Origin: Ostrea edulis
Lineage: Eukaryota
DNA: 64,000 nucleotides
Reading direction: 5' to 3'
Assembly (NCBI RefSeq): GCF_947568905.1
Contig: NC_079170.1
Span: 38,254,001 to 38,318,000, forward strand
Below are positions 22,933 through 44,153 of the stretch, piece by piece. The position numbers were made by a program, and so were the translations under genes. The number at the start of each line of letters is the position of its first letter. Position 1 is the first letter of the stretch. The notes under the pieces are model-generated. The model searched no databases, was not told the DNA's origin, and saw only the letters and a list, made by a program, of their open reading frames with translations.

Positions 22933-25125
22933 GCATGTATACTTCATTTATCAAATTTAAAAATGTACGATGGAGTTTTTAACGAATGCTGAAACCAGAA
23001 GATATGCGTTATTTACATGTATGTGTGGGTTATGCAGGCCTGATGTTTACTTCGCAGTGCAAGATCAACTTTGAAGTCGTTCCTACCAGGGGCGCTTGTC
23101 TCATAACCTAGACTTTGTAAGCTACATATATACGTCGCCTCATGCACCAGAAAATGCGATTTTTGATTTATTAAAAGATTTAAACTACAATGTGACTTAC
23201 CATAACATGCAGCATCGTCGCTAATTAAATCCGACACGGTAAAGTATGTAAGCAAATCACAGATTCACGTTTTAAAATCGATGAGACATGACGTCATCTT
23301 TTACATTGTAGAAATATTCATGACGCATTTTATGCTTCGATAGGCGGATCAAGCAATCCCCCAAGTAAAAACATAATGAAACAGCAATTTTGCAAACACT
23401 TAATATTCAGTTTTGTATTTCACATAGGACATCGTTGTACACATTGAGCAGAGTTCGTTTTTGATTTTTTAACCATTCAAATTTTGTGTAACTGTATTTG
23501 TAAACAAAATACCACGTTTTATTTAGAAATAACTGGGAGGGTCAGACAATACCGTATTTTATTGTGCACGTTTAATCCCGTTGATTTTTAATTTCATAAA
23601 TCGAAGTTCTATCAACGTAACAGTATTCCACGGTCCAATGTAAAATTAGAAAAGAAAAAGTGGTGTCGTCGTGGTTGTCAAGGGGATGTGTCCCCATACC
23701 AAGTTACATCTATGCAATTTAAACGAAATTTTTCAACGTATTCAGCCAATCAAATTGTGTGTTGCAAGTGAAATTGAATTATAAACATATAGATTGCAAT
23801 GGGGTTTTTTTTAAAATATTGAACTTAAACTATTGGCAAAAGAAGACACTCATCTTCCAATGTGGAACAAACACTTCACAAAAAGAGCCTTCCATCAATC
23901 TGTACATACAGAAAGAATAGAAAAAATGCAAGGGTGATTGTTATGGAATCTAACATCTGGAAAAGCTCGAGAGATGTAATAACCTCCTAGCAATATGTAT
24001 TTATTTCAAAGGATTATAACGTGAATGGAAAAATTAAAACATTTTCCTTAACTAGTGTATGATGTAAGTCATAAACAATGTTGAATGATGCTTGGTTATG
24101 TCCGATTGTAATAATATCACTAATGACATTTCGGAGGTCTTCGTCTTTTTATGGACTTTCTTCATTTTTCACCATGTCGATACAAGGGAAAAGATGATCT
24201 AATTCCTTAGGAGGTTTTCGTCGTTGGCTCTGGCTGTCAGAAAACATCAGAACATCAGAAAATATCAACACGTTTTTTTTCAATTATTTCAAGACAGTTT
24301 ACATAATCTAAGGACAACTCATCCCTCGACATATAAAACCCCCAGACATATTTATTGTGTTTTGAACTTGTAATATTCAGAAAATTCATTGTAAGTTTTA
24401 GTGGTTTCCTGTTTAAGCTTAGTCATGAAGTACAATTACAACATCTCACCACTTGGTATAAACATCTTCTTTGCAGTTGTTCACCTTAATTATTGCAAAT
24501 TAACATACAATATTTTCATTTGGCCTATTCATTGTGAGAATTTTCTTTCTAAAATCGACTGAATGATTTAAGCGTGCACTGATCTATTCCTTGTAATTAA
24601 AATTAAATGGCTAATTAATTGATGTATAGACAAATCTTTTTCTAGTGTTCTCTATAAAACAATATTTCATGGGTCGAGTTGTCTAAACAAGGGCGTGATT
24701 TGTGTATACAAGAGATTAAATTGAAAATAAAGTGAGAATTGTTTGGAAAACAAAGAACAATAAACAACTTTTGAACGGCAAACGAAAGGTCTTGTCACAG
24801 GGAAATGTGATATATGACAGCCCTATCGTATCCCATTCAAAAGTTCTCAGCAAGGGTAACATTTTGAAATTTTGGGTCAAGCAGAAACAGTGAAGAAAAG
24901 TCCAGAAAATTGTCATATCCATAAGTCTTTTAGAAATAGGTTAACTAAACCCAAACTCAAATTTGATCTGTAACCCATTAATATAAATTCAAGTCTGTCA
25001 CAGGGTGACAATGGCGTATTTTAATTAGCAAATGTTCTATGTACTTAATTCATTTCAGATTGTTCAGTACACTTTCATTCATTCATTCATTCACCTGTTT
25101 ACTAATCCATTCATGCATTGTCATC

Positions 25126-25432
25126 AGTAGTATAACGCCTCCCGATAGGGGGTTCAACTGAGTGCACTTTTTATGCAAATGAGGTCAAGCAAGGGCGTCT
25201 TTTGATTGGTCAAGCGGTGTCGGGGTCAACGGAGTGCACTAGGACGGGGTCAACCCCAGCAGGGGTTGTAGGAGCCGGTGAATAGGTTGGCCTATGGCCG
25301 CTGGTCTATGATGCGGTACTTTCGCTTTGAGTTCCTGCTATTTTTCTGAAAATAAAATCCAGTGAAATCCTGTGTATTAAATCTAAAAGAATAACACAAG
25401 GTTTTAAGTTGACATGTTTATTAAAGAACAAT
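25126..25432 (+). repeat. Left terminal inverted repeat (307 bp)
   Basis: Compared base by base with the reverse complement of 45058-45364; no mismatch seen. Confidence 0.97.
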
Positions 25433-25539: not shown

Positions 25540-28500
25540 ATGTCAGACAAGTTACCTAGTGGACTTCCACGGAGTTATATTGAACAGCGATTGAGATTTT
25601 TGAATGATCAGCTGAACAGACAACGGCAGCGTGAATTACATCTCCGCAGAGAGAATCAACGGCGACTACAGTATTTACAGCGGGGAGGGGGGAAAAAGAA
25701 ACCCATTTCGGATTATTACAAAATTCAACTGGAACGAGGACGTCAATCACGGAAATTTAAAGTCAAGGAAAATGTCTACAATGTTGCCTTCAAGCCTATT
25801 CCAGAGAAAGAAAATACAGCCTTCATTCGTCGCCTCTTCCGGGATATGTTAAAAAATGTGAAACAGGAAATGCAGTGCAATCCCAATGATTATCTACGTT
25901 TAAATATTCGGCACCCGTCTCTGGATTCAGCTATTTGGTACGAATTTACGCAGTCCAATCAGCTCAACGAGGACAAAATTCTGAACAAAATAGAATCCGT
26001 GCAGCAATCTAAAAAGGAATTCCTAATCACCGACGGGGCAGTGCAGATGGATTTTTTCCATGTCAAATATCCACAAGGCAGCGGGTGCACTAAGAAAAAA
26101 CATCTACACGTGGATAAGGAGAAATTCAAAACCTCTAAGAGAGCGATCGTTCGCATTCAAAATCCTGAGGATTCTCTCTGCTTGTCCCGGGCTATTGTGG
26201 TAGCACGTCTACACAGCCAGAAATCAAACGACCCGGCATGGGAAACGAAATGGTTACGCATGAGAAAAGGGGATAAAGATTCTCTCGATCAGAAACGAGA
26301 AGCGATAGCCTTGATGGAACAAGCTGGGTGTGTTATGAACCAGCCGTGTGGGCCACGTGAATGGGAGCAATTACAGCACGCGCTCGCCCCACAGTATCGA
26401 TTGAAAATATTTCAATTCAAAACGAATACAACTCGTTTACGACTGGAACCTATTTACAAAGGACCGGGGCACGGGACTTGTTTGAATATCCTGCTGGATA
26501 ACGAGCATTACGATGCCATTGTGTCTATGCCTGGGGTGACGGAAAACAAATACTATTGCGATTATTGCGATGTTGGCTACAGTCACATTGAAGATCATCG
26601 GACCGTCTGTCCTCATCGATGCTCATTTTGTTTAGCCGATACCCCCTGTACCCCGGACGGGACTCAGACGAATTGCCCTCATTGTAAGGGATTTTTCAGA
26701 AATGCAGCTTGTTACCAGACTCACTTGAAACCTTACAGCAGTAATACAAAGACCACGGTCTGTAGTTTAATGGGGCGCTGTAACCAGTGTCAGAAATGGA
26801 TGTCTAAGCAATTATTAAAACGCCACGCGTGCGGGGGTCAAACCGAATGCCGCATCTGTCACAAAGTCGTCACCATGCCTCATCACTGCTTTGTACAGAC
26901 GAAACCCAAACCTAAGAAAGAAAAAGAAGAAGAGGAGTTGAAAATATACATTTATTACGATTTCGAATGCAGTCAGGAAAACGGTATTCACATCCCCAAT
27001 TTATGCGTGGCAGAACGTGTGTGTCAACATTGCGACAGTGCGGATATCGACAAGCCCTGTTCTCATTGTGAAGGATTCGGATCACAACGCCGCTTCCTAT
27101 TTCAAGGACCCGACACGTTAAAACAGTTTATGGAATGGCTCTTACAGAGCGAGACCGATGAGCAAGGCCATGTGGAACTCAAACACGATGAAGCCACCAT
27201 CATTGCCCACAATTTCAAAGGATACGATGGGCAGTTTATTTTGAATTACCTGGTGCACACGGCGTGTATCAAACCCACCGTCATCCTGAACGGTAGTAAA
27301 ATCTTATCCATGCAAGTCTTGGGGTTGAGATTCATCGATTCTTACAACTTTCTACCCTTTGCTCTTGCCAAGATGCCCTCTGCTTTCGGATTAACGGAAT
27401 TGAAAAAAGGATATTTCCCGCACTTTTTCAACACGACAGAGAACCAGCAGTATGTGGGTCCTTACCCGGCCGCTCATTTCTACAATCCTGACGATATGTC
27501 CACCGCCAATCGTGAAGCCTTCTATACTTGGTACCATCAACAAGAGGGCAAAGTCTTTGATTTCCAGAAAGAATTCTTAGCTTACTGCATCTCGGACGTG
27601 GATATTTTACGCCGGTGTTGTGCCCATTTCAAGTCCACCCTGTTTGATCTGGTGGAAGTAGACCCCTTTCAAGAATCCATCACGTTTGCCAGCACGGCTA
27701 ATTTAGCCTACCGACGAGGATTCATGGTTGAAAATACCATCGCCATCATTCCCAATATGGGCTACCGGCCAGCACGACGATATTCAGCTAAAGCTTGTCG
27801 ATGGCTCGCCTGGCTAGAACATCAACATCACTGCATACGACATGCTAGAAATGGGGGCGAAGTCACGCTTGGACCCTATACAGTAGATGGGTATGATGAG
27901 GAATATCGTATCGTGTACGGATTCTATGGCTGTTACTGGCACGGCTGTCCCACCTGTTTCCCGAAACTGTTGACTGACATGCATCCTCATCGTGTTCAGC
28001 ATACGTATCAAGACCTCTACCTGGACACCTTAAAATGAGCCAGTGCTTTAGAAGACCAAGGCTATACAGTCGTGAGCATATGGGAACACGAGTTTGATCG
28101 TCAGACCCTGACCAATCCCGACTTACAGGAATTTTTACAAGGAGTCGATATACAAGATCCTTTGAATCCCCGTGACGCTTTGTACGGAGGGCGGACCAAT
28201 GCTACACGACTGTATTGTGAGGAAGGTGACATGCGATACGTGGATGTCTGTTCCCTGTACCCGTACGTGTTGAAATACAAGCCATTTCCCGTCCAACATC
28301 CCCAAGTCATCACCAGCCATTTCACCGATGTCAGAGACTATTTCGGGCTCATTCGCTGTCGTGTCCTCCCACCCCGAGAGCTGTATCACCCCGTATTACC
28401 TTACAAGACCGGGGGTAAATTACTCTTTCCCTTATGCCGCACCTGTGCGGAACAGCGCAACTTAGGATCCGACGAGCGGTGCCAGCACACCGATTCTGAA

Positions 28501-36632: not shown

Positions 36633-38036
36633 ATGATGCACAGAGAATCTTGCGCTTGTGGCACCGACAGTTTAGAACTGTTTAAAGTGCCCCCGACCAA
36701 CGTCACTTTAGAAGATTCGAAATGGATGGAATATTACCCCATTTCCAGTACCCTCAACTCGGATACGGCTCCGATTGAATTTGAAATCAAAGGACAAGGA
36801 GATGAATATCTGGATTTATCCCAAACTTATCTCCAGATGGTCTGTAAATTCACCAAAGCAGACGGGACGAATCTCGCAGGAGGCAATTCGACCTCGACCC
36901 CCGTGAATAACATTCTCCATTCCTTGTTCAGTGAAATCGATGTCAGTCTCAATGGAAAAGTCATTACCCCGGGGACGGATACTTATCCCTACAAAGCGTA
37001 TCTGGAGAAATTGTTGTCTTATGCACCCAAGACTCTGGAAACCCAGATGAGAGCCTGTAGCTTGTGGGAAAAAGATACGGCAGGACATATGGATGAGGTC
37101 AAATTAGAAGCTCTGACTCAACCTCCTGTGGAATTTGCAGTAGCGCTTGATAAAGTCAACATCGCGGCCGTCATCCCGACTCCCGTGTATCCGGATGATT
37201 CCAAGAATGTAGGGTTGAGAAAACGTCACGAGAAGATTACAGACAGTAAGGAGATCGTGTTGATGGATCGATTACATCTGGATTTGTTTGAGCAAGAGAA
37301 ATGTCTCCCTAATGGCTTGGATGTCCGTCTCAGATTCAATCGCGCTCGACCCCAGTTCTACATGATGACCGCTGCCGGGAGTAGTGGGAAAGTGGTCATT
37401 CAAAGTATGATCTTGTGGGTGAGGAAAGTCAAACCTGTGCCGAGTATCATTAATCTCATCAATCAGCAACTGAGTACTCAAACGGCGAAATATCCATTGA
37501 GACGAGTGGAAGTGAAAACCTTCACCATTCCTAGTGGCACCCAGTCTAAAATCACCGATCATCTGTTTCAAGGACAGATGCCTAAACTGATCGTGTTGGG
37601 TTTTGTGGACAATGCGGCTTTTAATGGGGATAATACCAGAAACCCCTTTCATTTCCAAAATGAGAGAGTCAAGAAATTAGAAATCAGTATCAATGGAGAA
37701 ATGATGGAAACCCGCCCTTTGGAACCTAATTTCACCGACGATCAGTACCTGAGATCGTATTTGAGTCTGTACAAAGGCTTGGGAAAATTAGGCCAGGACT
37801 GGGCTCCGGACATTACCCTGGAAGAGTATAAAAACGGTTACACCCTCTGGTGTGTGGATTTCACGAAAGATCAAGAAGCCCAGACGGATAAATTTCATCT
37901 CATACAGACGGGGAACTTGAGAGTGGAAGTGCAATTTGCCGCCAACGTGGCCAGGACCTTAAACTGTGTGGTGTATGCCGTGTTCGACAATCTGCTAGAA
38001 ATCAACAAACAACGAGAAGTCAGTATCGATTACTAA
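36633..38036 (+). CDS. PY: Major capsid protein (double jelly roll)
   Basis: PIEFEI...[48 protein letters not shown] and GNLRVEVQF motifs; TATAAAAA at 36560. Confidence 0.95.
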
Positions 38037-39229: not shown

Positions 39230-39631
39230 ATGTCGTTTGAACGGTACGTGGATGGTGAGAAAGATGTACTAATGTGTGGGTATTGCCGAGGACCTTGGAG
39301 AACTTGTGGGTGTTTTCATTATAAAAAAGAAAACATCCTGGCCAAACATAAGTGGATAGAGTATATGGCAGAGCTGAATTATTGTCCCTTTGTCTATAAA
39401 TGTTGTGGTCACACTAGAGAACCCTGGCTACCGTGTAAGTGTCCGCAGCATTGTACCATCAACCCTGAAGATGAAATAGCTCATAAGGACTGTACCTGTG
39501 AGATCTGTCAGGAGTTTAGAGAGCGCTGGACTCAGAGAAAGTTTAAACCCCACCTGTTTCAACATTGTCCTTACAGTCAAGAACCCCGGTCAACGTGTAC
39601 CTGTGAGACCTGTCAACCAGCATGTCGGTGA
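39230..39631 (+). CDS. Cys/His-rich putative metal-binding protein (133 aa)
   Basis: Many CxxC/CxC motifs; internal repeat CTCEICQ / CTCETCQ. Confidence 0.7.
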   Translation: MSFERYVDGEKDVLMCGYCRGPWRTCGCFHYKKENILAKHKWIEYMAELNYCPFVYKCCGHTREPWLPCKCPQHCTINPEDEIAHKDCTCEICQEFRERWTQRKFKPHLFQHCPYSQEPRSTCTCETCQPACR

Positions 39632-40119
39632 CGGATCTACGAGGAGATGTATTATCTCTACCTTGGGTGGATGGTATTGTACAACAATGTAACTGTTTAA
39701 CGGTGAAACCTCATGGATTAAGTCAACGTATTGCCGACCGATTTCCTTGGGCTAATCTGTATGCGACCCGACAACCTTTAGGACGAAGAAATTTAGCTAT
39801 AGAAGCGGATCGAGGAATACCGGGTACTGTGTGTATTATGCCTCATTCTTCTCATCCTGATGTAATCTGTTTGTTAGCGCAATGGGATTACGGGAGAGGC
39901 ACTCAACGCTTACCCCTGTATGCCGATACCCCCGAACAACGTGAACTTTGGTTTCAACAATGTTTACAGGAATTAGGCACTTTGTCTTACCAGACTTTAG
40001 CGTTTCCTTATCGTATTGGATGTGGATTAGGCGGAGGCAATTGGACTCATTATAGACAATGGATTTGTGACTTTGCTTATCAGTATCATAAACATGTTTA
40101 CATTGTCAAGAAAATGTAA
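39622..40119 (+). CDS. Macrodomain protein (TARG1/DarG/SCO6735-like class), putative ADP-ribosyl hydrolase
   Basis: GDVL...IVQQCNC...GL...I...FP; VICLLAQ..YG; FPYRIGCGLGGGNW diphosphate-binding loop. Confidence 0.85.
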   Translation: MSVTDLRGDVLSLPWVDGIVQQCNCLTVKPHGLSQRIADRFPWANLYATRQPLGRRNLAIEADRGIPGTVCIMPHSSHPDVICLLAQWDYGRGTQRLPLYADTPEQRELWFQQCLQELGTLSYQTLAFPYRIGCGLGGGNWTHYRQWICDFAYQYHKHVYIVKKM

Positions 40120-41611: not shown

Positions 41612-41830
41612 TCAAATACATAACTCCCACACACAACACCAATGCACATGTCTTTTTAAAATAGGGTCCAACATTTTTTCCATTTCTCGAATCCTGCGTT
41701 GAAATCGATATCGATCAGCGGCTACAGTCATCCAGATACTTGTCCGGTCTTCTTCGGGTAACCGATACACTTCATTATGATCCAGATTAAAAGTCACACG
41801 TTTAACTTGACGTACATCTCTCGAAGACAT
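41612..41830 (-). CDS. DP71L/ICP34.5/GADD34-like PP1 regulatory subunit (72 aa)
   Basis: ATG 41830: MSSRDVRQVKRVTFNLDHNEVYRLPEEDRTSIWMTVAADRYRFQRRIREMEKMLDPIL; RVxF motif plus the W...A.DR.RF.RRI...E..L signature. Confidence 0.85.
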   Translation of the reverse strand: MSSRDVRQVKRVTFNLDHNEVYRLPEEDRTSIWMTVAADRYRFQRRIREMEKMLDPILKRHVHWCCVWELCI

Positions 41831-42099
41831 CGTAGTCTGATTTTCTCGATTTCTGCTCTGTCTGTGGGTCGAATTCGTTTCAATTCCTGGCCCATTAAAT
41901 GAATCAATACTAAGGCTTGCGGGGTGATCCGGTTCTCGATCAAATACTGACAGAGACATGGATAGTCCTTTAAGCTGATGGGAAATAATTCTTCTCGCAT
42001 ATAGTGTAACACAAATTCAATCTGCCAAGAATGAATGTCTGTGAGATAATCCAATACATAAGTTATCGCTTTCTCTGTGATGTGGTCACTGCTGGCCAT
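41794..42099 (-). CDS. Unknown helical protein, tandem paralogue 4 (101 aa)
   Basis: ATG 42099; shares FPxxLxxY and LxxIxxxGxExKxxxP....I..I...L motifs with its neighbours. Confidence 0.75.
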   Translation of the reverse strand: MASSDHITEKAITYVLDYLTDIHSWQIEFVLHYMREELFPISLKDYPCLCQYLIENRITPQALVLIHLMGQELKRIRPTDRAEIEKIRLRCLREMYVKLNV

Positions 42100-42433
42100 C
42101 CTCCGGGAATAAATGAAATGAATTAAGTTCTTCACACTTTATGTATACTTCTCGAAGCCAGTCCTTGGTGATACTTTCAATCTCAACGGTTTTTTCAGGC
42201 ATGCGTTTCTTGAATTCCTCCCCCAGGACATAAATTAACATCAATCCCGCATCGTTATAGAGATTGATGTATATCCGGTTCCGTAGATCTGTATATTCGT
42301 CCAGAGTCATTGGAAACACCCCCGCTATCAGAAAATTTTTAACGAATTGAAACACCGTATCGTCTTGCATTTTCTCGACCCATTCTAATGCATGGTTATG
42401 CGCTTTTTCTGCGATGTTGTCACTGCTGGCCAT
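42086..42433 (-). CDS. Unknown helical protein, tandem paralogue 3 (115 aa)
   Basis: Start region GGAGGATGGCCAGCAGTGAC identical to that of the 42099 ORF; shared protein motifs. Confidence 0.8.
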   Translation of the reverse strand: MASSDNIAEKAHNHALEWVEKMQDDTVFQFVKNFLIAGVFPMTLDEYTDLRNRIYINLYNDAGLMLIYVLGEEFKKRMPEKTVEIESITKDWLREVYIKCEELNSFHLFPEDGQQ

Positions 42434-42462
42434 CCTCCACGAATAAAGGAAAAGAAAAACGG

Positions 42463-42816
42463 TTAGGTTTTTTTATACACCTTTTCCAACCAGTGATCGG
42501 TAATCGCTACAATCGCCCCAGTCTTCTCAGGTTCCCGTCGTCTAAATTCTTGCTCCATGGTATAATTCATGATCAATCCAGACTCTCTGTTCAGGTTGCC
42601 GGCTATATGCTTGCAAACGCCGGAATATTCATATAAGGTCATAGGAAATTCCCAAAAGATCAACAACTTCATAGCGAATTTATATCTCAACGGCTGTTTT
42701 TCTTTCCAGTCCTTGATACACTGTAATGCAGCGCTACGAGCGTTGTTCACCGATTCTTTGTAGTCCTTGAAATGCTGTAATACAGCGGTAAGAACGTTGT
42801 TGGTCAATTCAGCCAT
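42463..42816 (-). CDS. Unknown helical protein, tandem paralogue 2 (117 aa)
   Basis: FPMTLYEY, EQEFRRREPEKT and HWLEKVY align with paralogue 3. Confidence 0.75.
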   Translation of the reverse strand: MAELTNNVLTAVLQHFKDYKESVNNARSAALQCIKDWKEKQPLRYKFAMKLLIFWEFPMTLYEYSGVCKHIAGNLNRESGLIMNYTMEQEFRRREPEKTGAIVAITDHWLEKVYKKT

Positions 42817-42853
42817 GATGATCAAAATGAAAAAATTCCAAAACGTTCTTGTT

Positions 42854-43186
42854 TTATAACAGGGCAGCCATTCCTTTCATACGAATCAGTTCCACGAATC
42901 CTTTTTGTAAACAATCGCGTAAGATCCGATCAATGTCACTCATCTGGTCTGGAAGATTCTGTTTCAATTCCTCAGCATACAAATAAATCATGAGTAAACG
43001 TCCCGTATTGGTATTCTCCGCTAATGAATCAGCAATCCGTTGAAAACTATGTACATTTCTGACCTCCGGTGACATCTGTTGTACAAATTGACGAGCATTT
43101 TGAATGTGAGGATTATGTAAGGCCATGTTCATACATTGTAGTACATAACTATATCCATTTATTCTCGTAGTAGCACTGCCGCCCAT
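42854..43186 (-). CDS. Unknown helical protein, tandem paralogue 1 (110 aa)
   Basis: LLMIYLYAEELKQNLP...IDRILRDCL aligns with the family; TATAAATA on the minus strand at 43217-43224 favours ATG 43186 over 43213. Confidence 0.7.
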   Translation of the reverse strand: MGGSATTRINGYSYVLQCMNMALHNPHIQNARQFVQQMSPEVRNVHSFQRIADSLAENTNTGRLLMIYLYAEELKQNLPDQMSDIDRILRDCLQKGFVELIRMKGMAALL

Positions 43187-43216
43187 AGTAAATAACGAAC
43201 GTTCAGAAAACATCTG

Positions 43217-43290
43217 TATTTATAGGTAAAGGTTATGCATCACGTGATCAAACACCTGCACCACGTGATCAAACACCTGTACGTCAGCTG
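43217..43290. promoter_or_regulatory. Divergent promoter with duplicated E-box module
   Basis: CACGTGATCAAACACCTG at 43241-43258 and 43262-43279, ACGTCA and CAGCTG at 43281-43290, between divergent ATGs at 43186 and 43326. Confidence 0.6.
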
Positions 43291-43325: not shown

Positions 43326-43832
43326 ATGGATACACGGAGAATTTTAAGAGCGAGACGCTGCCGCCAGGGAATACAATCAGTGGAGAATTTAACCATAGTG
43401 GAAGATTATGTAGACGAGATGGAGATCTGGGACAATTTAGTACAGAGATGTCGCCATCGATTACGCTGGGGGCGATCTAAAAATTGGTGTTTTGACTATG
43501 TATTGCGGTCACATGAAACAGTGGAGGATATTTGCCTACGATTAAGTGACATGTACCTGAAAAATTCCCCCCTCATACAGTACATGATTTACCAGTTTTA
43601 CACGTTATTGAACGGCACTCAAAAAGTATCGGGATTTATTCGACTGGAGAAACCACGTTACCGAAGAAGTGTATGGGTATTGTTTTGGGATGCACACTGG
43701 ATGTGGGAAACCGTCGAAGAGATACGTTTCCCCGGGAGAAGAGCTCGACAATTAGTACAACACATTATATCCGAAGATCATGACTTACACGTGTATATAG
43801 AAGAACCTGCGTATGAAGCCGGCCATTTTTAA
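43326..43832 (+). CDS. Protein with a degenerate CRESS-virus Rep (HUH) endonuclease-like domain (168 aa)
   Basis: SKNWCF ... IQYMIYQ ... NGTQKVSGFIRLEKPR ... V..LF.DAHW follows the circo/nanovirus Rep N-domain pattern; HUH and YxxK catalytic residues are absent. Confidence 0.62.
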   Translation: MDTRRILRARRCRQGIQSVENLTIVEDYVDEMEIWDNLVQRCRHRLRWGRSKNWCFDYVLRSHETVEDICLRLSDMYLKNSPLIQYMIYQFYTLLNGTQKVSGFIRLEKPRYRRSVWVLFWDAHWMWETVEEIRFPGRRARQLVQHIISEDHDLHVYIEEPAYEAGHF

Positions 43833-43847
43833 AAATAAAAACTTCAT

Positions 43848-43871
43848 GCACAGCCCTTTTTAGGGCTACTT
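43848..43871 (+). terminator. Possible histone-type stem-loop
   Basis: AGCCCT TTTT AGGGCT AC at 43852-43869, 19 nt after the Rep-like stop; AATAAA at 43835 precedes it; no clear downstream element. Confidence 0.5.
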
Positions 43872-43920
43872 TAAACATCAATATAAGTTCCATTCCACTA
43901 AAGTCAATGTGTACCAATGT

Positions 43921-43992
43921 GCACTAGCACGCGCTGGTCGCGAGAAACCGGCTTTTCAAGTTCAATTAGGGCACTAGCACGCGCTGGTCGCG
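43921..43992. repeat. 22-bp direct repeat, 50-bp period, upstream of the zinc-knuckle gene
   Basis: GCACTAGCACGCGCTGGTCGCG at 43921-43942 and 43971-43992. Confidence 0.9.
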
Positions 43993-44153
43993 CGATGTTC
44001 TAGCTGAAACCGGTTTTTCCAGAAAAAGATGATGCAACCACGTGCTCCCCACGTGCCCCCCCACGAGACAGAATAGTCTAGACATTTTGCTGGCTATAAA
44101 AGCGGAGCCCCAGTGTCAGTCCTCATTCGATCTTCAATCACCTTCCAGAAGAC

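Follow-up and report, generated by a model that had tools for sequence, protein, structure and literature searches.

An accessory Polinton gene under purifying selection encodes a predicted CRESS-type Rep endonuclease domain stripped of its canonical catalytic residues

Capture and disarming of Rep genes by dsDNA viruses are known. The avipoxvirus protein apvRep-1 is a captured cressdnavirus Rep reduced to the endonuclease alone, which has lost the HUH motif and the catalytic Tyr and has a dN/dS of 0.23 (Kinsella et al. 2023, PMC10193959; this and the other papers are cited from their accessible parts). HHV-6 U94 is a further case, a Rep gene that a dsDNA virus took up and whose endonuclease motifs are inactive (PMC10193959). 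Replitron transposases are related to CRESS Reps and keep HUQ and GYxxK, a second domain and a motif I of the form SUTU (PMC10288648), and the Gulliviroviridae, viruses of the virophage type, carry circovirus-like nickases that are classed as replicases (bioRxiv 10.64898/2026.10.13.758929). In the literature we searched, which took in few subscription papers and lay outside Repbase, no Polinton is described as having a dead Rep domain: the accessible parts of PMC11296320 say nothing on Rep domains in Polintons, and "HUH" is absent from the main text of an adintovirus survey, whose unnamed conserved ORFs could include a Rep-like gene (PMC8502044). As far as searched, Polintons are new as carriers.

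The window, by which we mean the whole 64,000-nucleotide stretch of DNA that was analysed, contains a complete Polinton/Maverick of 20.2 kb (25126-45364, + strand) with 307-bp TIRs and a 6-bp TSD, GTCATC, at 25120-25125 and 45365-45370. The left TIR (25126-25432, + strand) starts AGTAGTATAAC and has two CAAC(T/G)GAGTGCAC motifs inside; the right TIR (45058-45364, - strand) is 100% complementary to it, and the two TIRs begin AGTAGTA. Pfam matches within the element are pPolB, IAP, an A32-like ATPase and an rve integrase with a chromodomain, and the C5 protease reaches 21 bits, slightly below the cut-off; the ORF at 36633-38036 is presumed from its position and size, without a Pfam hit, to encode the major capsid protein. 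The features by which a Polinton/Maverick is recognized (pPolB, rve integrase, packaging ATPase, C5 protease, TIRs and a 6-bp TSD) are present, which bears out the preliminary description in placing the Rep-like ORF inside a dsDNA Polinton. The pPolB gene of the window copy is broken by one in-frame stop (28036-28038). Outside the Polinton, a 592-aa reverse-transcriptase-like ORF (54633-56411, + strand) belongs to a non-LTR retrotransposon whose family was judged by eye.

The Rep-derived ORF (P0001, 168 aa; 43326-43832, + strand) has the start context GTCATGG and is followed by AATAAA at 43834-43839. It belongs to the accessory right arm, where it has a cluster of four ORFs on one side and a CCHC zinc-knuckle gene on the other, and both the coordinates and the motif strings of the preliminary description hold. 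Residues 34-48 (43425-43469, + strand) form a predicted N-terminal helix that runs from acidic to basic and stands outside the Rep match. Profile alignment and structural models indicate that residues 48-161 (43467-43808, + strand) are a CRESS-type HUH Rep endonuclease domain; in the AlphaFold2 models, with the register taken from hhalign, a five-stranded sheet and three helices carry motifs I-III on beta1, beta3 and alpha3. The sole family match in Pfam is to Viral_Rep PF02407, with E 0.015 and 16 bits against a gathering cut-off of 26. Eight of 17 family members match PF02407 at E<=1, and the best score in the ORF's own genome, an 895-Mb animal assembly that served for all own-genome searches, is 19.3 bits; none of its 95 PF02407 candidates is an intact Rep.

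We compared the family profile with a set of CRESS-type Rep domains derived from IMG/VR loci collected by a motif-I pattern (126 loci yielding 108 domains, 107 of them unique, of which the 97 with H-U-Q/H and YxxK were kept). The hhalign match had 97% probability and a score of 63.1; none of 60 column shuffles scored above 19.9, and the reversed profile scored 10.8. Because the CRESS set had been chosen on motif I, that motif was also removed from both profiles; the score was then 28.4, which 0 of 60 shuffles reached (highest 20.4). The two AlphaFold2 models are of moderate quality, with pLDDT 52.7 at full length and 67.3 for residues 33-165. Foldseek with the 67.3 model returned CRESS Rep domains at ranks 1-9 (best E 2.3e-4, TM 0.58), followed by papillomavirus E1 DNA-binding domains, and the 52.7 model gave the same top match more weakly, with 13 BFVD matches at E<=0.001 of which the named ones are all Rep proteins. 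VIA-align superposed 108 residues on the redondovirus Rep domain 9pqf (Z 10.7, rmsd 3.2), and its rows 1-11 are all HUH-fold domains. The first ESM Atlas matches, at 0.93 and 0.95, are clusters dominated by Cressdnaviricota, with P0018, a protein of the YITK clade described below, flagged for low recognition. With the single protein as query the PDB yielded no sequence match, and with the profile as query only two kinesin chains at E 0.093.

A match to the HUH Rep fold, in profile or structure, was what the preliminary description had staked its claim of a Rep N-domain on, and both hhalign and Foldseek supplied one. Its remark that there is no helicase is also correct: the ORF stops 7 residues past the nuclease domain, and the oligomerization domain and SF3 helicase are absent. 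No longer or fused relative was found among 8000 candidates scored, a sample that says little for the family at large; the 1783-aa protein P0007, with E 7e-4 over 37 residues, was dropped as a chance match. One of the strings listed earlier has to be given up as homologous, namely AHW, which occurs only in the window's subfamily; the HWE of CRESS Reps aligns two residues later, on M126-W127-E128. Of the proposed gene flow from a CRESS virus, the homology is supported; no close donor lineage emerged from our tree, in which the family forms a long branch and all 27 CRESS domains included lie apart from it. Replitrons or the gullivirus nickases, as the accessible parts of the respective papers present them, could be an intermediate donor.

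The metal site has been replaced throughout the family. Our alignment (A4) holds 22 rows from six clades, some rows being only 33-50% identical to the window protein. In PCV2 Rep the metal ligands are Glu48, His57 and Gln59 (bioRxiv 2020.09.01.278671), and their counterparts in the hhalign profile alignment are Tyr92, Lys100 and Ser102. Tyr92 (43599-43601, + strand), which stands in place of the metal-binding Glu, is invariant in 22 of 22 rows, and so are the Lys and Ser of Lys100-Val-Ser102 (43623-43631, + strand), aligned to the HUH/HUQ motif. The Glu is present in 97 of 97 CRESS domains; His, Gln, Tyr and Lys are too, but the set was filtered for them. At the motif I equivalent, WCFDYVL (43485-43505, + strand), the Thr of CRESS Reps has become D or E in 21 of 22 rows, with one gap. 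The substitutions reported earlier from the window alone, FDYVL at motif I and KVS at HUH, thus extend to the family, in which the canonical metal ligands are replaced in 22 of 22 rows.

Motif III behaves differently across the family. The window has H146-I-I-S149 (43761-43772, + strand), in agreement with the earlier statement that YxxK is missing, but the statement fails for the family, in which four of 22 rows, all from outside the own genome, keep Y-I-T-K. At the position of the catalytic Tyr the 22 rows have H (3), A (12), F, I or Y (4), and one gap. The Y-I-T-K relic at motif III is an independent confirmation of the alignment register. Our tree combined 21 family rows, P0009 being omitted as too short, with 27 of the 97 CRESS domains, and its bootstrap did not converge. 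It places the YITK clade as the sister group of the remaining 17 rows, with support of 97/100. This position fits an order, suggested by the sequences, in which the metal site would have been lost first and Tyr/Lys later. The own genome yielded no YITK-type copy when searched with a YITK-clade protein (best match 47% identity over most of the length). The YITK-clade contigs are at most 3.3 kb, and no loci related to the outside homologs were found in the viral and metagenome contigs searched. Replacement of the metal site is unusually fixed, and the YITK clade would be a natural intermediate.

Searches of the own genome gave 146 matches to the Rep-derived protein: 82 are full length at 95-100% (subfamily A), 37 are divergent, at 42-53% over at least 109 residues (subfamilies B1 and B2), and the remainder are fragments. 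Outside the own genome only seven clusters with 19 sequences were found. In 80 of the 82 A copies, variants shared by at least two copies comprise 18 nonsynonymous and 20 synonymous changes (sites 400/104), a dN/dS of 0.23 (p 1.3e-5). The same measure gives 0.12 for the protease, 0.24 for the Bcl-2-like ORF described below and 0.27 for the CCHC gene as controls, and 0.59-0.77 for three other small ORFs. Single-copy variants in subfamily A (35 nonsynonymous, 10 synonymous) have a dN/dS of 0.91 and will mostly have arisen after insertion. Among 28 B2 copies the figures are 14 and 12, with a dN/dS of 0.28 (p 0.0017), and among 12 B1 copies the dN/dS of 0.53 is not significant (p 0.066). The A copies were chosen as full-length matches, so the absence of frameshifts carries no weight. 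Purifying selection on shared variants confirms that the gene has been retained, as had been supposed from the window, and this protein-level selection acts in lineages already stripped of all canonical catalytic residues.

The idea that the domain is a decaying passenger without current function, which the neutrality of single-copy variants and the existence of gene-less elements, at least one form of which has spread, might recommend, is scarcely credible and is already largely refuted by the selection data, since the shared-variant dN/dS of 0.23 is about that of its neighbours (0.24 for the Bcl-2-like ORF, 0.12 for the protease) and an open frame with fixed residues is kept across clades that are 42-53% identical.

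The gene-less elements show that the Rep-like gene is accessory and not needed in cis. Of 34 loci that we fetched, most of them chosen for a protease or CCHC match without a Rep-like match nearby, two have the gene and five have an intact right arm from which it is absent (L169, L170, L261, L173 and L176). L182 has a degraded arm without a match, and the others are truncated or internally deleted elements. Three B2 gene-less elements are joined through a ~77-bp direct repeat that flanks the gene; two from B1 share a common junction at different host sites, and one junction at different host sites means that the gene-less form has been mobilized. The protein is possibly supplied to such elements in trans. 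Among the deleted elements, L248, L250, L257 and L022 are short, with both ends and a CCHC remnant, and L248 and L022 have two inverted copies of the CCHC gene, as if the right arm had been copied onto both ends. Our search for expression listed no RNA data set that contains the ORF. Parts of it are covered by contigs from four runs whose kind is uncertain, which are not counted as evidence of expression; one of these runs has loose ends resembling a cDNA template-switch primer and a 260-nt contig over 43551-43789.

The Rep-like gene has a fixed position in the element. We fetched 20 loci with it, 19 divergent and one of the window type; the CCHC gene adjoins it in 20 of 20 and the Bcl-2-like ORF in 18 of 20. 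The CCHC gene, with two zinc knuckles, lies downstream (44154/44345-44977, + strand); the window copy is shorter than most A copies, whose open frames have about 290-320 aa, and 49 of 60 copies have an indel relative to the window that is not a multiple of three. Upstream are four tandem paralogous ORFs of 101-119 aa (41794-43213, - strand), of which the nearest matches Bcl-2 weakly, at an E of 0.0068 that misses the cut-off, and the other three do not match it; B1 and B2 have three ORFs in this cluster, and one of the paralogous small ORFs carries stops in 14 of 77 A copies. A further ORF (41612-41959, - strand) has a PP1c-binding region, PF10488, at 26.2 bits, just over the cut-off, and we take it to be a GADD34/ICP34.5-type antagonist of translation shut-off. 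The 165-aa ORF at 39622-40119 (+ strand), without a Pfam hit, has by eye what we take to be the look of a macrodomain, and is doubled in some B1 loci (L028, L037 and L040). An adintovirus survey lists Bcl2 and IAP homologs in its accessible parts (PMC8502044).

What might a Rep domain do that can no longer cut? We tentatively favour a non-cutting binder of the Polinton's own DNA that tunes transcription or replication, without giving this reading quite an even chance. A Rep nuclease domain would have been captured from an ssDNA replicon and, after its two-step loss of the metal site and then of Tyr/Lys, would hold DNA through a basic N-terminal tail and the beta3-alpha2 segment in the manner of pMV158 RepB, with Lys100 possibly giving the positive charge once given by the metal ion. 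The target would be the element's own DNA and the effect a tuned transcription or replication. Several lines of evidence bear on this. K or R is found in at least five of six clade rows at 11 columns (42, 43, 50, 52, 99, 100, 106, 109, 111, 113 and 139), which cluster ahead of beta1 and from beta3 into alpha2. The basic stretch R106-K109-R111-R113 (43641-43664, + strand), spanning the end of beta3, the loop and the start of alpha2, is a candidate dsDNA-binding surface. RepB grips direct repeats in dsDNA with its N-terminal tail, its beta3-alpha2 loop and its helix alpha2, an activity that does not depend on nicking (PMC9943647). It is the conserved basic columns together with this precedent that lead us to prefer a protein that binds the Polinton's DNA without cutting it. 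Across the 22 rows the core carries a net charge between +3 and +10, and the 97 CRESS domains average +1.8 (sd 2.3); the window core, at +3, is the least basic of the 22, which counts against DNA binding. When the six clades are compared, conservation is highest in the former HUH strand (77%), followed by the N-tail plus beta1 (60%), and lowest in alpha1 (27%) and beta4 (30%); the loop with alpha2 is just 43% identical.

The candidate targets divide into repeats and element ends. The divergent promoter region upstream of the ORF has two 18-bp direct repeats with CACGTG E-boxes (43241-43279), and two 22-bp direct repeats (43921-43942 and 43971-43992) lie between the ORF and the CCHC gene. The core of the 22-bp repeat occurs twice in 72 of 80 subfamily-A loci and is common to B2, whereas B1 has, where subfamily A has E-box repeats, four to five tandem ~85-bp repeats with GCGCGCGAAA upstream of the Rep-like gene (L021); we take GCGCGCGAAA to be an E2F-like site. 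The preliminary description had named the 22-bp repeats as a target, and this is weakened by the lack of co-variation with protein alleles: the B1 alpha2 resembles that of A, yet the B1 repeats differ, and A and B2 have the 22-bp repeats in common. The 22-bp repeat region folds no better than shuffles (z 0.05). From mid-ORF through the downstream repeats, A (43575-44400) and B2 (L029) are 74% alike in DNA, with proteins that are ~45% identical, and the right arm looks like a mosaic between subfamilies.

Another target suggested earlier was a CRESS nonanucleotide hairpin. None of four exact nonanucleotides was found in the Polinton, and although the element end matches at 8 of 9 bases, this match is outside any hairpin loop and its last bases vary. 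Indeed, among 113 element ends, 68 are AGTAGTATAAC, 32 end in ...AAG, 7 in ...AAA and 6 otherwise, and 0 are TAGTATTAC. We considered the terminal TAGTATAAC as a relic CRESS origin, unpaired but outside a loop (z -0.81), and rejected it because the ends vary, there is no loop and gene-less elements end alike.

An alternative that we regard as possible but on the doubtful side is that the dead domain is a protein-interaction module directed against a host pathway such as the cell cycle, DNA-damage or antiviral sensing. The company it keeps is suggestive, with a Bcl-2-like cluster, the PP1c-binding ORF and a RING-like ORF as neighbours and an IAP in the same element, but the C-terminal zinc-ligand pattern of the RING-like ORF is without a Pfam hit. 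The former active-site strand is the most conserved part (77%), and its non-catalytic residues could form a new binding face; the conserved surface residues, however, are mainly Arg and Lys, as expected for nucleic-acid binding. Exaptation is discussed for apvReps in the accessible parts of Kinsella et al. (PMC10193959). Adenovirus E4-ORF3 is among the fold matches (Z 7.6-7.7), but this is the level of unrelated ferredoxin-like folds, with 6% identity; we rejected a link to E4-ORF3 at the generic-fold Z of 7.6, and our literature search found no paper on it.

A bolder version of the binder would have the metal site rebuilt as a fixed Tyr/Lys/Ser pocket in which lysine replaces the metal ion, giving a metal-free DNA clamp or even a transesterase that works on the element's ends or promoters. 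This is unlikely, and were it true the YxxK-bearing relatives would be a living halfway stage and one could study directly how an HUH nuclease turns into a domain that only binds origins, as the initiators of papilloma- and polyomaviruses are assumed to have done.

Defence offers a third use, distinctly less probable, in which the protein would act as a non-cutting decoy, either sitting on the origin hairpin of CRESS viruses that infect the same cell or poisoning the Rep of those viruses. Retention of the fold and of the beta1/beta3 face would suit this, the same hypothesis was raised for apvReps (accessible parts of PMC10193959), and the protein of a Polinton is likely nuclear, so that the objection in that paper would be removed. 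The strand that would have to do the reading tells against it: beta4 (sDBM) of active Reps reads the nonanucleotide (bioRxiv 2020.09.01.278671, accessible parts), but here it is 30% identical between clades and has an insertion. Both the hairpin binding and the origin decoy of the preliminary description are weakened by finding this ssDNA-reading strand among the least conserved parts. In addition, the oligomerization domain needed to join Rep hexamers is absent, and dN/dS of shared variants points to purifying selection only, with no diversifying signal seen.

It is very improbable that Tyr92, Lys100 and Ser102 form a metal-free catalytic or ligand pocket in their own right, for example with a Tyr nucleophile and a phosphate-holding Lys. 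Each of the three is the same residue in 22 of 22 rows from six clades, a uniformity that free decay is unlikely to produce, and one clade has YxxK on top of the Tyr/Lys/Ser triad. The same invariance is also to be expected, however, of residues that hold DNA or occupy the vacated metal pocket; the family is a small one of single origin, motif III varies freely (Y, F, A, I, H), and we know of no HUH enzyme that works without metal ligands.

Polintons would join the short list of dsDNA viruses with a captured, disarmed ssDNA-virus Rep. Capture implies that a Polinton ancestor and an ssDNA replicon were once in the same cells, and supports a virus-like life for Polintons. The system is tractable, with a small protein, more than 100 genomic copies, three subfamilies, gene-less variants and an outside clade that has the catalytic Tyr, and its natural gradation lends itself to the question of why disarmed Rep domains are retained time after time, the poxvirus apvReps included.

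The papillomavirus E1 DNA-binding domain and the SV40 large T origin-binding domain are inactivated HUH domains. Both are HUH-fold DNA binders among our fold matches (1r9w, 1ksy and 4gdf), but they are fused to an SF3 helicase in essential initiators, whereas the Polinton protein stands alone and is dispensable in cis. The pMV158 RepB origin-binding domain has the same fold (VIA-align Z 8.5-8.7; 8.5 to 8amu, on DNA) at 7% identity, and RepB is, unlike the Polinton protein, an active hexameric plasmid initiator (PMC9943647). HHV-6 U94 differs in its parvoviral origin and in having kept the helicase (PMC10193959), and Replitrons differ at motif I, SUTU as opposed to the WCF of the Polinton ORF, in the accessible parts of their description. 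The Reps of CRESS viruses (PF02407; PCV2 6wdz, duck circovirus 7kij, nanovirus 6h8o and redondovirus 9pqf) are alike in fold and order of elements, in WCF at the start of motif I and in GT..GF around motif II; in the Polinton ORF Glu/His/Gln and YxxK are replaced, the oligomerization domain and SF3 helicase are absent, there is an additional N-terminal helix, and the Pfam score is below the cut-off. The traits that mark an apvRep-1-type protein are present, namely a Rep domain in a dsDNA virus-like element, lost catalytic motifs and purifying selection. As far as the accessible parts of its description go, apvRep-1 and the Polinton protein share a dsDNA carrier, an endonuclease-only architecture, the loss of catalytic motifs and purifying selection at 0.23, a likeness drawn from these features; the carrier is an integrating, presumably nuclear Polinton as opposed to a cytoplasmic poxvirus, and the Polinton Rep differs in keeping a basic N-terminal segment and in its fixed Tyr/Lys/Ser triad.
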